This document shows positions 29,979 to 54,162 of a stretch of 64,000 bases of DNA, one piece after another. The notes beneath the pieces are model-generated. The model made no database searches, had not been told where the DNA came from, and saw nothing but the letters and a program-made list of their open reading frames with translations. Both the position numbers and the translations under genes were made by a program. Position 1 is the stretch's first letter. The number at the start of each line of letters is the position of its first letter. Location: NCBI GenBank assembly GCA_964016885.1, contig OZ024760.1:22630001-22694000 (forward strand), in the 5' to 3' direction. Origin of the DNA: Eledone cirrhosa (Eukaryota).

Positions 29979-30049
29979 TATTTTACCTGATGAGAACGCA
30001 GATATCATCCCATGATGATATTTGTTTTTGAAATGCGCATAATAAAATA
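29979..30049 (+). ncRNA. Type I hammerhead ribozyme motif
   Basis: TATTTTAC-CTGATGA-[GAACGCAGATATCATC/GATGATATTTGTTTTT]-GAAA-TGCGCA-TA-ATAAAATA. Confidence 0.8.
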
Positions 30050-30361
30050 CTTGGAATTCTTTTAACCATCTTTTGATCTTATATACGCGCGCGCACACCT
30101 ACCTACCTCCCTCCCTCCCCCCTCCCTCCCTCCCTCCCTCTTAAGGGGAACACAAACATAAGGCCAGCTTTCGGCTGCCTACTGTGGATCGCTGGTGTTT
30201 CGATGTAGTAAAGACAGTACATCTCACCACATTAACATATCAGTCATCACACAACGCCTTTGTCAGTTTTAATTCATATATATTTGTGTGTAAACTCGTA
30301 ACTCGATTTGATCAACATTCCCCCTCTCCATTATTGTCCTCGTACCTAAATCTGAAATCAT

Positions 30362-31410
30362 ATTGGCAGTATCGGTAGAGGGTCGGACGCCATGCTTTGG
30401 CGCATAGAGTTACAGCCCTTGCCATTCTGAGTTCAAATCCCGTCGAGGTTAACTTTGCCTTTCATCCTTACGGTGTCGATAAAATAAAGTACCAGTAATA
30501 TACTGGTTAATTGCTGGTCTTGTGCCAAAAGTAGAAACAATTATTATTCTCTTAATTGTTTCTACGTTAGGCACAAGGCCAGCAAATACCCAGTGTATTA
30601 CTGGTACTTATTATTATTCTAATAATGTGAGTTCAAATGCCACCAAGGTTAACTTTGCCTTTCACCTTTACGTGGTCGATAAAATAAAGCACCAGTAATG
30701 TACCGGGGTCGATTATATCGACTTTCCCAACCCCCAAATTACTGGCCTTGTGCCTATACTAGAAATCATTATTATTCTAATCAATATTATTGAGTTCTGA
30801 TTTCAAATTTAGCCGAGATTAGCTTCAGCGTTCATCCTTACGGGGTCGATAAAATAAAGTACCAGTAACGCACTGAGGTCAATTTAATGTACTTTCCCTT
30901 CTCCACAACTGCTGGCCTTAAACCTAAATAAAAAACCAGGTGGATTGGCTGTATCGATAGAGGGTCGGACGCATAATGTTCTGGCCCTTTACACACACAC
31001 ACACACCACACACCACACACCACACCTCTCCCCAAGACGAACGCCGCAACAGTAGTACGGATGGATCGTAAAGTTACGGCTCTTTATAGTCTGAGTTCAA
31101 ATCCCGTCGAGGTTAACTTTGCCTTTCATCCTTATGAGGTCAATAAAATAAAGTACCAGTAATACACTTGGGACAGTTGCTGACCTTGTGCCAATTGCTG
31201 ACCTTGTGCCAAAAGTAGGAACAATTATTACAGGCATTGCAGCACATAGTTACTACTTCTTAAGTTCTGGGTTCAAATCCTGCCGAGGTTAGCTTTGCCG
31301 TTCATCCTTACGGGGTCGATAAAATAAAGTACCAGTAATGTACTGAGGTCAATTTAATGGACTTTCTCTTCTCATTAAGTTGTTGGTCTTGAGCCAAAAT
31401 ATTAAGCCAT
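30362..31410 (+). mobile_element. Cluster of ~6 tRNA-SINE copies and fragments (one minus fragment at 30555-30612)
   Basis: Repeated B-box and GTCGATAAAATAAAGTACCAG. Both short and long 3' variants are present. Confidence 0.85.
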
Positions 31411-32388
31411 TATAACTATTACTGTGGCCAAACAAATACGAAATTTTCACGTTGACTGAGCACGTATTTACAAGAAGAAAAACAATATATTACAACATCA
31501 ATAAAATCTAGATTGGATATGAGGAATTATTAGTTGGTAACACAAGTATTTAACAATAAAATCTTTCTCTAAAACTGTAGCATCGTAACGGAAGATTTAT
31601 TACTAACGAAATAACAATGAGAAGATTAAAAATCAAGATACACCCAAGTATGCAAATAAGGACTATTTTATGGTGGTTGAAAGTATAAAGGTTAAGAAAA
31701 AAAATTTAAAATAAAATTTAAAAAAACATCAAGAGGAAAAAATGAAAAAAAAAAAGAGAAAAAATGATGAAAAAAAATAAAAAAAAACGAAAAAATGAAA
31801 AAAATGGAAAACAAAAACGAGATATGCAAAAATCATGAGATAACAATGCCATTCCTATGATACTTGACTATGAATTTGTGGCAATAAACTCCACCAAAAA
31901 CAAACCAAAGCTAATAGACACTTCATTCAGAAGATAAGACAAAGACAATATTGAAGTGATCAGAGAATTCAGGAAGTTTAACGTTCCAAAAATAAGATAA
32001 TCTTGAATATAAAAAATAGATAACGTTTGAGAAATTCCTGTTTTTATGGTTTTCTATATGTAAGTATATATATATATATATATATATGTATAATGTTTCT
32101 ATGTTTATATCCATATGTAGTTTATATACACATACATTTATATATATATAATATATATATATATATATATAGTGGAGAATAACGATACCTCGTTAATACA
32201 CGCGCACGCACACGCGGGTGTACGGGAGCCTTACATGGTCTCAACCCTTTGGCTGGTACAGGTTAAAAGGCAAAAGAGTATATATACAAATATATTTCTT
32301 CGGAAACACTTGGCCAATATCCCGTGTTCAATGCGAAGTGGTAAGGTACTCAATACGTTAGTAGAGTGTATACAATAAACCTAATATA

Positions 32389-32495
32389 GAAATGGTTTCT
32401 ACTGGACTAGAACTGTTTCATTCGAAGGAAATCTTCAATAAAGTCCTAATGTTTCCCTTCCAGTGAAACAGTTCTAGTCCTGTAGAAGCCATTTC
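32389..32495. mobile_element. Foldback with degenerate hammerhead on the minus strand (family C)
   Basis: ~32-bp inverted arms. Minus 32404-32446 reads GGACT(TT)A-TTGAAGA-TTTCCTTCGAAT-GAAA-CAGT-TC-TAGTCC. Confidence 0.55.
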
Positions 32496-32557
32496 GATAT
32501 AAAATTTCTTATATATATATATGTATACGTATTCTAAACACTATTATTAAGTTCTGA

Positions 32558-33355
32558 GGGCGGTGGCAGTATCGGTAGAGGGTCGGACGCCATGCTTTGC
32601 AGCACAGTTACGTCCCTTTACGGACTGAGTTCAAATCCCGCCGAGGTTAACTTTGCCTTTCATCCTTACGGGGTCGATAAAATAAAGTACCAGTAATGTA
32701 CTGGGTAATTGCTGGCCTTGTGCCAATAGTAGAAACAATTATTAGGGCGGCGGATTCGCAGTATCGGTGGAAGGTCGGACGCCATGTTTTCCAGCATAGT
32801 TACGTCCCTTTACGATCTGAGTTCAAATCCCGCCGAGGTTGACTTTGCCTTTCATCCTTACGGGGTCGATAAAATAAAGTACCAGTAATGCACTGGGTAA
32901 TTGCTGGCCTTGTGCCTAAAGTAGAAACAATTATTAAGTTCTGAGTTTAAATCGTACTGAAGTTAGCTTTCCCTTTCAGCCTTACACTGTGGATAAAGTA
33001 AAGTACCAGTCATCCACTGGGGTCGATTTAAGCAAATTTCCCCTCGCCAAATCTATTGTCCTCGTCCCTAAATCAGGTGAATTGGCAGTATCGGTAGAGG
33101 GTCGGACGCAATGCTTTGCAGCATAGTTACGTCCCTTTACGGTTTGAGATCGAATTCAACCGTGGTTAACTTTGGCATTTATCCTTACTGGGTCGATAAA
33201 ATAAAGTAGCAGTAATACACTGGATGATTGCTGGCCTTCTGCCAAAAGTAGAAACAATTATTAAGTTCTGAGTTCAAATCAAGGTGGATAAAATAAGCTA
33301 CGAGTCACACACTGGGGTCGATTTAATCGATTTTCTCCCCTCCCACTAATCTGTT
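32558..33355 (+). mobile_element. Head-to-tail cluster of five tRNA-SINE copies and fragments
   Basis: Copies at ~32558, 32744, 32937, 33077 and 33264. ATTATTAAGTTCTGAG recurs at the junctions. Confidence 0.88.
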
Positions 33356-51929: not shown

Positions 51930-52478
51930 TATTAAAATACCAGATTAAAGTTTGAGCAAAGAATCGCTGCTTTCACCCTTAATGGGATCTTCTGAAACTT
52001 TAATCTGTTATTTTAATAAATATTTGCTCTACGGTTTTATATATTATCCTTACCGATTCCTCTTCGGATTTTAATCTTCACATTTATTACAAATCCCTCT
52101 GAGGTTACCTTTGCCTTTCATCCTTACGGGGTTGATAAAATAAAGTACCAGTAATGTACTGGGATATTTGCTGGCCTTGTGCCAAAAGTTGAAACAATTA
52201 TTATTACTATATATATATGTATATATATATATATATAGTAATAATAATAAATTTGAAGACTAAAATCCAAAGAGGGCTCGATAAGGATAAATATATATCA
52301 AATATATAAGAACCGTAGAGCAAATATTTATTTTAAAAAATAACTGATTCAAGTTTAAGCAAAGAATCGCTGCTTTCACCCTTAACGGGATCTTCTGAAA
52401 CTAACTTTCAGAAGATCCCGGTAAGGGTAAAAGCAGCGATTCTTTGCTTAAACATTAATATGTTATTTTAATAAATAT
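51930..52478. mobile_element. Compound family B element: three CAGAAGA hammerhead-like motifs and a SINE fragment (52090-52205)
   Basis: Motifs at 51949-51999 (-), 52352-52402 (-) and 52404-52453 (+). 52000-52090 is inverted relative to 52245-52356. Confidence 0.65.
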
Positions 52479-52550
52479 ATATATATATATATATATAATA
52501 TGCTGAGAAGGTAACACACCAGAGAGAGATATATAGTGCGTTATCAATAA

Positions 52551-52600
52551 TATGTTGAGAAGGTAACACTCTCTGTGTGTTACCTTCTCAACATATTATA
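52551..52600. repeat. Short palindrome, with a further arm copy at ~52495
   Basis: ATAATATGTTGAGAAGGTAACAC-TCTCTGT-GTGTTACCTTCTCAACATATTAT. Confidence 0.8.
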
Positions 52601-53923
52601 TTTTAAAGGGCTCAGGATCTCTTCCCCTTTGAGCACATTATTTACAGGGAATAACGACGGCCTATGCCTCCGTTAATTTATCGTGATATATATATATATA
52701 TATATATATATATATATATATATATATATATATACTCGTGTGTGTATATAATATGAAAACTAGAATCTTCTAAAATATATGTCAGACTGTGTTCCTTCGT
52801 AACCGCATTCTTTAGTAGATTTTTTTTGCTTGTACGTTATATTATTTATATTATTTCCTGCACAATATCGTTTAGTTTCACACCAACAGATTATAGCAGT
52901 CTTTCATCTTAAACTTTGCAAAATTCATTGCACAGATCGACAAATTACACCCTGCGGCGTCTATTGTTCATTCATTTAGGAATTATATCAGGATATGTTA
53001 ATGAGGCATGAATATTGTGGGAGGGACAAAGAAACCATTTCACTCTGAGATTGAAATAGCATGTGTTGAATAGGATTATATTCTTTTATGACTGTGTATT
53101 GAGTAGGGTAATGGAGGAGAGAAGGTCACACGTAATAACACACATGTTCACACCACACACACACACACTATTATATATATCCACACACACACACACACGT
53201 ATATATATATATATATATATGTGCAAACACAGATATATACACGTATATATATATATATATATATAAATAATATATATATATAAATAATATATATATATAT
53301 ATAAATATATATATATATAAATAATATATATATAAATATATATATATAAATAATATAAATATATATATATATATAAATAATATATATATATAAATAATAT
53401 ATATATATGAATAATATAAATAATATAAATATATATATATATATATATATATATAAATAATATATATATATAAATATATATATATGAATAATATATATAA
53501 TATACATATATATACATATATACACACATATATATACATGTATATATACATGTATATATACATATATACACACATATATATACATGTATATATACATGTA
53601 TATATACATATATACACACATATATATACATGTATATATACATGTATATATACATATATACACACATATATATACATGTATATATATAAACGTATATATA
53701 TATATATATAAATAATATATATATATATATATACATGCACACATATATATATACATACACACATATATATATACATACACACATATATATATACACACAC
53801 ACATACATATATATATATATACACGTATATATTTATATATATAAACATACACACATACATACACATATATACACGTATATCAATGATATTAATAAATGGA
53901 AACTATATTTATAAAACCATATT

Positions 53924-53984
53924 TATTCTATTATATATATTTCAAGGGTACCAAAACTTTGGTACGCTCTCATCAGATAAAATA
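53924..53984 (-). ncRNA. Type I hammerhead ribozyme motif
   Basis: TATTTTAT-CTGATGA-[GAGCGTACCAA/TTGGTACCCTT]-GAAA-TATATA-TA-ATAGAATA. Confidence 0.85.
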
Positions 53985-54101
53985 CAAAATTTGTTTTATA
54001 AATTGTGACATATCCAGGAATCAGACCTTAACGGTCCAAGTTCCGTTTGGATAGTTAGTGTCTGATTCCTGGATAGGTCACTATTTATAGAACAAACTTT
54101 G

Positions 54102-54162
54102 TATTTTATCTGATGACAGCGTACCAAACTTTTGATGCCCTTGAAATATATATAATAGAATA
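54102..54162 (+). ncRNA. Type I hammerhead ribozyme motif (stem II mutated)
   Basis: TATTTTAT-CTGATGA-CAGCGTACCAAACTTTTGATGCCCTT-GAAA-TATATA-TA-ATAGAATA. Confidence 0.7.

Follow-up and report, generated by a model that had tools for sequence, protein, structure and literature searches.

Hammerhead ribozymes of metazoan Penelope-like retroelements (Cervera and de la Peña 2014, PMC4209133) are described as residing in terminal repeats, as occurring in thousands of dispersed copies and in inverted pairs 100-700 base pairs (bp) apart, and as forming many families with compensatory changes, a palindromic helix III and a proposed action as dimers. These ribozymes cut poorly alone, have been described without peripheral contacts, and one is protein-dependent, namely the anole Penelope hammerhead, the one tested with its protein, which cut only after the element protein was added (PMC11167929). 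A 64,000-nucleotide (nt) stretch of the Eledone cirrhosa genome (GCA_964016885.1, contig OZ024760.1, positions 22,630,001 to 22,694,000; here called the window) carries hammerheads of Penelope-like elements that have all of the metazoan features listed above in common with the published ones, and in which the fourth pair of stem II (pair 4, position 10.4 with position 11.4) is a mismatch with a constant 5' cytosine, C10.4. Sequence comparison indicates that this mismatch is a real, selected and lineage-specific feature of a known kind of ribozyme.

The Hydra-clade Penelope hammerheads (Craig et al. 2021, PMC8557442 File S2) share with those of the window the protein clade, a motif lying 3' of the open reading frame (ORF), type I topology, the usual absence of an extra nucleotide after A9, (TA)n surroundings and a first stem II pair that is often weak or U·U. 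In the Hydra rows of that file, however, stem II is short and position 4 is paired in 25 of 26 (by eye, the remaining row having only three pairs), whereas stem II here is long (20-47 nt including the loop) with C·H at pair 4; stem III has 3-4 bp in those rows and 2 bp plus a 4-nt palindrome here, and the distance to the stop codon is 0.1-0.5 kb there and 1-2 kb here. The consensus of PMC4209133 includes an extra nucleotide after A9 and a G10.1-C11.1 pair, neither of which is found in our motifs, judging from the register and from the pair 1 counts. Fig. S3 of the same paper contains C·C at pair 4 in 0 of 56 motifs and two single 1x1 mismatches at that pair (C·A in a sea urchin family and U·U in a Clonorchis family), on which the text consulted makes no comment.

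Canonical full-length type I hammerheads (the Schistosoma type and the Rfam families) have the core CUGANGA / GAAA / UH and type I topology in common with the motifs studied here, but the 4-bp stem II with a terminal loop and the conserved internal loop of stem I are both absent from the latter. The tandem non-coding repeats of a retrozyme of the non-LTR (non-long-terminal-repeat) kind, with one hammerhead per unit, were not found either, the copies being dispersed or inverted element ends, several of them ORF-linked. Variants with a short stem III, a Penelope-like association and dimer cleavage were reportedly treated by Lünse, Weinberg and Breaker in 2017, and that account may cover the present motifs. 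Literature searches, with figures and subscription journals outside their coverage, returned no report of a C-C mismatch in hammerhead stem II among the papers listed.

Abundance of the motif and state of pair 4

The 3.0-Gb genome was searched with three disjoint patterns, the first of which carried no stem II letters and was blind to that stem. This pattern matched 68,519 times (reversed-pattern control, 0), and the two others gave 32,199 matches (control 215) and 5,467 matches (control 3), a total of about 105,000 in which both members of inverted pairs are counted. Among the 68,519 blind matches, pair 4 is C·C in 41,366 (60%), C·U in 21,042 (31%), C·A in 2,886 (4%) and C-G in 244 (0.36%), while position 10.4 is a purine in 922 and T in 2,059 (by subtraction). 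The C-G and purine cases, judged from 100 listed matches of each, are point mutants or deletions dispersed over many subfamilies. Genuine amplified lineages with thousands of copies exist for both C·U and C·A; one C·A subfamily alone has 1,868 copies (C·A in the 100 matches listed), and at least two more C·A subfamilies recur. Among the matches listed from the blind searches, none belonged to an amplified lineage with U·U, U·C, A·A or G·A at pair 4. What is constant, then, is not the C·C combination but the 5' cytosine at 10.4 and its unpaired state.

A recurrent short variant was considered as a repaired C-G subfamily and rejected, its listed matches being C·A and its C-G ones rare mutants. 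A host-wide rule for the mismatch was also rejected: because classical 4-bp minimal hammerheads and low-copy types paired at position 4 share the same genome, the mismatch characterises the element lineage rather than the host.

An earlier note on the window, based on four copies, had taken an invariant C-C mismatch within a covarying stem II as a sign of selection on the RNA structure and perhaps of a hammerhead subtype, an idea to be abandoned if the mismatch were not enriched in a larger alignment. The note did not recognise the motifs as the ends of Penelope-like elements, from which hammerheads with a short palindromic stem III are known. Four copies are insufficient to show selection because they descend from related retroelement subfamilies, but persistence of the mismatch in the far larger sample described above bears out selection on the structure. 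The claim of invariance stands for the unpaired 5' C and falls for its partner, which may be C, U or A. The proposal of a distinct subtype is upheld by relatives from other organisms, from which the mismatch is missing.

Conservation of C10.4 across lineages

From 202 distinct motifs collected, we kept the 172 with at least three stem I pairs and removed 21 that had been fetched as C-G or purine mutants, leaving 151. These fall into 21 clusters at 70% identity, with C at 10.4 in 21/21; pair 4 is paired in one cluster, represented by a copy with a deletion, and pair 3 in all 21, by three Watson-Crick types (U-A, A-U and G-C). Among loci from the two stem-II-blind searches, pair 4 is paired in 1/38 and pair 3 in 37/38. 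Parsimony on 20 lineage representatives, using a short anchored alignment and a rough tree, gave no change at C10.4 and three at 11.4, which stays C in 16 of the 20 lineages, against 4 to 8 changes (mean 5.4, with compensation) in each of the other 14 stem II columns and 4 to 12 in flank columns on the same tree; for a single column, zero changes under a Poisson mean of 5.4 has a P of about 0.005. C10.4 is the sole invariant column of the MAFFT alignment that the search pattern did not impose. It lies outside the core, yet it matches the core in invariance across lineages with proteins 0.7 or more substitutions per site apart.

A strict purine-pyrimidine alternation was also observed, stem I positions 1.1-1.3 being R-Y-R and position 10.5 a purine in 20/20 host lineages.

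Covariation, folding and structural class

Pairing was assessed on a hand-picked alignment of 26 sequences from which point mutants were omitted, unbiased counts being those of the blind pattern searches. In this alignment 89.2% of cells pair (shuffled, 71.4 +/- 1.2, with 0/500 shuffles as high), the covariation score is 0.679 (control, 0.315), and pair 4 is paired in 0/26 sequences, while pair 1 is A-U in 10, G-U in 9, G-C in 4 and U·U in 3. RNAalifold recovers the three base pairs, the 1x1 mismatch and the distal stem unprompted, and one-sided register slips lower pairing from 111 to 40-46 of 140 cells. Stem II on the sense strand contains 17 G·U cells and 4 A·C cells, which argues that folding takes place in the sense RNA.

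As in a type I hammerhead, each of the three stems is either covarying or invariant, the core boxes having already been fixed by the search pattern. Stem III is of the short kind known from Penelope hammerheads (1-2 bp and a palindromic loop), with 2 bp here and a loop that is self-complementary in 146/151 copies (the pattern already demanded RYRY); an A-U to G-C double change occurs in 5/26 sequences. Replacing the mismatch by C-G is predicted to stabilise most of the 25 folded copies by roughly 6 kcal/mol, but C-G is found in no amplified lineage, and many copies show lower predicted pairing of pairs 1-3 with the mismatch than with C-G (0.52 vs 0.97, for example). Cofolding of two motifs returned duplexes other than the hammerhead dimer among the three structures listed.

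Comparison with Rfam, which the earlier note had recommended, gave no match at the gathering threshold on four loci and no hammerhead family even at E 10 on two isolated copies; in a scan of the whole window, no hammerhead stood among the best 150 of 526 matches, where microsatellite matches to microRNA models dominate. This points to a large hammerhead class, with some 100,000 copies in one genome, that escapes the Rfam models.

Carrier elements and their relatives

Between inverted motifs in host loci (extracted loci carry L-numbers, L126-L205 being from metagenomes) lie ORFs, and in L106 an open 800-residue reverse transcriptase (RT) frame with a C-terminal GIY-YIG domain ends 1.07 kb before a C·U motif. 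ORFs are linked to the AGGC (L108, L115), short GGAC with C·A (L321, L323), GGTC (L326, L327), GATC with C·U (L328, L331) and long GGAC (L336, ORF downstream) motif families, and continuity from ORF to motif was seen in at least two copies each of the AAAC, AGGC, short GGAC, GGTC and GATC families; no ORF was found for the TGTC, AATC, GCTC or GAAC-ATG families. The elements have the single ORF with RT and GIY-YIG, the terminal repeat with a hammerhead, and the 5'-truncated and inverted copies of Penelope-like elements, although the ORF had no match in Pfam.

On their sequence marks, with published Hydra sequences compared by eye, the elements are assigned to the Hydra clade. Section 11 of PMC8557442 defines this clade by DKT, a CxCx5C linker, CxxC, CxH and the absence of a cysteine pair from the GIY-YIG core, and the L106 protein has DKT at 123, CNCRIKNKC at 659 (CxCx5C), CNLC at 759 (CxxC) and CLH at 787 (CxH), with one cysteine between the GIY- and YIG-like motifs and no cysteine pair inside the core. 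At the place of the N-terminal RWK motif of the clade, L106 has RWT, L109 has RWR and the related host ORF L222 has RWK. A Nematis label was rejected, the marks fitting Hydra.

A quick RT tree places the host ORFs in one long-branched clade (support 100), in which the C·C lineage is sister to the C·U lineage at a distance of 0.73 substitutions per site, and an endonuclease tree unites five mismatch-bearing lineages (support 82). Two other host ORFs of the clade (L209/L042 and L222) have different hammerheads, and on that ground we rejected the L209 ORF as a carrier of GGTC and the L222 ORF as a carrier of TGTC-GCG. For the GCTC family, a Neptune-like ORF was likewise rejected; that ORF carries its own ordinary hammerhead, and the motif is therefore not shared across clades. 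The sister Hydra lineages of the same genome have hammerhead-like motifs with a very long stem II of about 70 nt or more (L042, minus strand 1995-1890; L222, plus strand 3209-3410), the one at L042 having C·U at pair 7.

AATAAA or ATTAAA occurs within 25 nt 3' of the predicted cut site in 10/20 host lineages and 13/51 metagenome hammerheads (background 3.4%; window example, 42089-42110), and no polyadenylation-type hexamer was found on the 5' side of the cut. Predicted cleavage would part the RNA body from the hexamer. Because copies extend 40-150 nt beyond the cut site, we rejected a model in which the cut end primes on (TA)n.

Related ORFs (28-40% identity) at 80 metagenome loci yielded 51 distinct hammerheads, in which pair 4 is paired in 49, C-G in 23 and C·C in none; viral contigs contained no relatives that we could find. 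The covariance model used on the window (R1, described below) scores 49-74 bits on the window copies and 26 bits or less on the metagenome hammerheads. Because relatives pair position 4, in 49/51 metagenome hammerheads and in the published Hydra rows, the mismatch is derived, with C-G probably the ancestral state. The first stem II pair is U·U in 30/51 of the metagenome Hydra-type hammerheads, and C·C occurs at pair 3 in L189.

Interpretation of the constant cytosine

Since C10.4 is invariant while its partner is free among C, U and A, the cytosine itself appears to be what is read. The interpretation that we prefer, with rather less than even confidence, is that these type I hammerheads of the Hydra-clade Penelope-like terminal repeat, predicted to cut as dimers, present in C10.4 a selected site that would be read most likely by the RT-endonuclease of the element. 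A more specific version, which we put forward still more tentatively, is a protein-gated subtype in which the ancestral C-G was broken and the freed cytosine may serve as an RT handle, switching RNA cutting and template choice. Two motifs would join through an 8-nt self-complementary stem III to give the active core, dimer action of the kind proposed in PMC4209133 being suggested by the palindromic stem III; the mismatch would leave three weak pairs beside the core and hence a marginally folded ribozyme, and protein binding to the exposed C in the long stem II could couple folding or cutting to assembly of the element RNA-protein complex. Selection would be limited to the few retrotransposing copies, most genomic copies presumably being passive relics.

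We rank recognition by protein, provisionally, before an RNA groove contact and place pure tuning third, because no base of stem I or the flanks is conserved as a partner (no conserved flank column within 12 nt 5' or 16 nt 3'), the length of stem I ranges between 4 bp and, in L318, an unbroken 12 bp, and the anole hammerhead depends on protein (PMC11167929). Several points weigh on the other side. Cleavage was dispensable for insertion in vitro in the experiments of PMC11167929; a groove contact with stem I requires no covarying partner; and relatives in which pair 4 is formed rely on a protein of the same kind, so that the protein would need to have co-evolved. Further, the roughly five changes seen at 11.4 (C·U twice, C·A three times) are too few for the absence of G to be significant alone, several of the lineage representatives came from searches that demanded C at 10.4, and the trees were made from short alignments by quick methods or with FastTree.

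An RNA tertiary contact, which the earlier note had offered as a possibility and in which the unpaired C would hold stem II against stem I in place of the canonical loop II contact and speed cleavage, is the strongest competitor, if on balance an unlikely one. Contacts between stems I and II give natural hammerheads their speed (PMC6155905), C10.4 lies near the canonical stem II end, where loop II seems to be closed by C...A after four pairs (Fig. S1 of PMC4209133, as machine-read), and the R-Y-R / Y-R-Y of the first three stem I pairs in 20/20 lineages fits a groove contact; yet C10.4 is one pair away from the canonical C, no conserved or covarying base was found in stem I or the flanks, a bulged G at 2.9 occurs in only 5/20 lineages, and the stem I of a C·A lineage is an unbroken 12 bp. 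The bulged G at 2.9 as partner of C10.4, and covariation between stem II and the stem III loop, were both sought by eye and not found. We consider thermodynamic tuning improbable as the sole explanation, namely that the mismatch weakens or kinks stem II, holding cleavage low or breaking up a long duplex, with no specific partner. The lowered pairing predicted for pairs 1-3 and the freedom of the partner are what it would lead one to expect, but it leaves unexplained both the fixed position of the mismatch and the constancy of the 5' C, given the lack of amplified U·U, U·C, A·A and G·A lineages among the matches listed. Natural C·C, C·U and C·A versions, together with paired outgroup versions, offer a one-base handle for distinguishing protein from RNA contact as the activator of these ribozymes.

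The mismatch might also be a by-product of constraint on DNA, with C10.4 lying in a promoter or protein site of the terminal repeat or the complementary DNA strand folding. Promoters do reside in Penelope terminal repeats (PMC6765202), and a purine directly follows C10.4 on its 3' side in 20/20 lineages; however, the bases around C10.4 vary freely but remain paired, the G·U excess in stem II favours the sense RNA, and the persistence of C at 11.4 also speaks against this explanation, which we regard as very improbable. Neutral inheritance, with an ancestral C-G having become C·C once and been carried along since, seems to us the least probable of all and is already largely refuted. A single origin is itself likely, C-G being the commonest pair 4 in relatives, and the mismatch lineages all belong to a single genome and a single protein clade, but a neutral unpaired base is expected to change faster than a paired one, and the flanks changed 4 to 12 times on the tree in which C10.4 never did. 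Nor is the site mutation-proof, since dead copies do mutate C10.4 (4.4% of the 68,519).

Hammerhead copies in the window

A covariance model built from 26 copies, among them four of those in the window, picked out eight hammerhead motifs there, all with E of 2e-11 or lower, and no more up to E 1 (Table 1; copies are named by strand and position). All eight share one layout: CUGANGA leads into a stem II whose three proximal base pairs are set off from a longer distal part by a 1x1 mismatch, and GAAA is followed by a 2-bp stem III capped with a 4-nt palindrome, by the predicted cut triplet AUA and by stem I. Every stem II sequence quoted in the earlier note was found exactly as given, mismatch position included, and its four divergent hammerheads are all real, although they make up half of the set, which includes a copy of another family (-40019) that is also C·C. 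Its description of stem I as staying near TATTTTRT does not hold for two of the four copies cited, both damaged: -36001, in which the 5' arm is TATGACAT and 3/5 modelled pairs are broken, and +29987, in which the first stem I pair is C·A. The damage in -36001 would stem from an internal deletion relative to L114/L115, and with its stem I 5' arm lost this copy is likely to be dead.

Table 1. Hammerhead motifs and element ends in the window
Feature	Position	Strand	Pair 4	Remarks
GAAC (C·U) subfamily hammerhead (+29987)	29977-30051	+	C29997·T30026	stem III palindrome GCGC; element end about 29906-30085
Intact hammerhead, AGGC subfamily	35180-35248	+	C35200·C35223	72.3 bits, outside training set; element end about 35000-35302
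GGAC subfamily hammerhead (-36001)	35942-36011	-	C35991·C35967	
Distant-family hammerhead (-40019)	39960-40029	-	C40009·C39985	core CTGAAGA, other stem I, loop GTGC; element end about 39921-40128
Inverted partner of +42040 (41944 copy)	41886-41954	-	C41934·C41911	partner copy spans 41612-41978
Penelope-like element 3' end, 5'-truncated, carrying +42040	41991-42243	+		95% identity to ORF-bearing L108 and L115 ends
Intact hammerhead, AGGC subfamily (+42040)	42030-42098	+	C42050·C42073	74.1 bits, in training set; stem I 42032-42039 with 42089-42096; core 42040-42046; stem II 42047-42076; GAAA at 42077; stem III palindromic; predicted cut after A42088
Intact hammerhead, GAGC subfamily (-53976)	53922-53986	-	C53966·C53947	
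Inverted partner of -53976 (54110 copy)	54100-54164	+	C·C retained	stem II decayed; 59.2 bits

The two inverted pairs (41944/42040 and 53976/54110) have the arrangement typical of Penelope insertions. The 41944 copy is split, 3 nt beyond the cut site, by an insertion of about 180 nt (41715-41894) that resembles a short interspersed element and has a 16-nt target duplication.

Other features of the window

An inverted pair at 51718-51929 matches a Neptune-like Penelope element (L112, L225) at its 3' end, and the hairpin has an Rfam match to mir-3910 below threshold. On the minus strand at 51020-51060 is the start of a classical minimal hammerhead, of a family with thousands of genome copies, interrupted by a (GT)n run. 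A 204-residue frame at 49509-50123, also on the minus strand, has in Pfam only a weak zf-RVT match (E 0.096). We take this frame to resemble the zinc-finger and restriction-like endonuclease end of a non-LTR retrotransposon. At 26312-26432 lies a near-perfect, GC-rich hairpin of 121 nt, its top Rfam match falling below threshold, which is probably an inverted repeat element.

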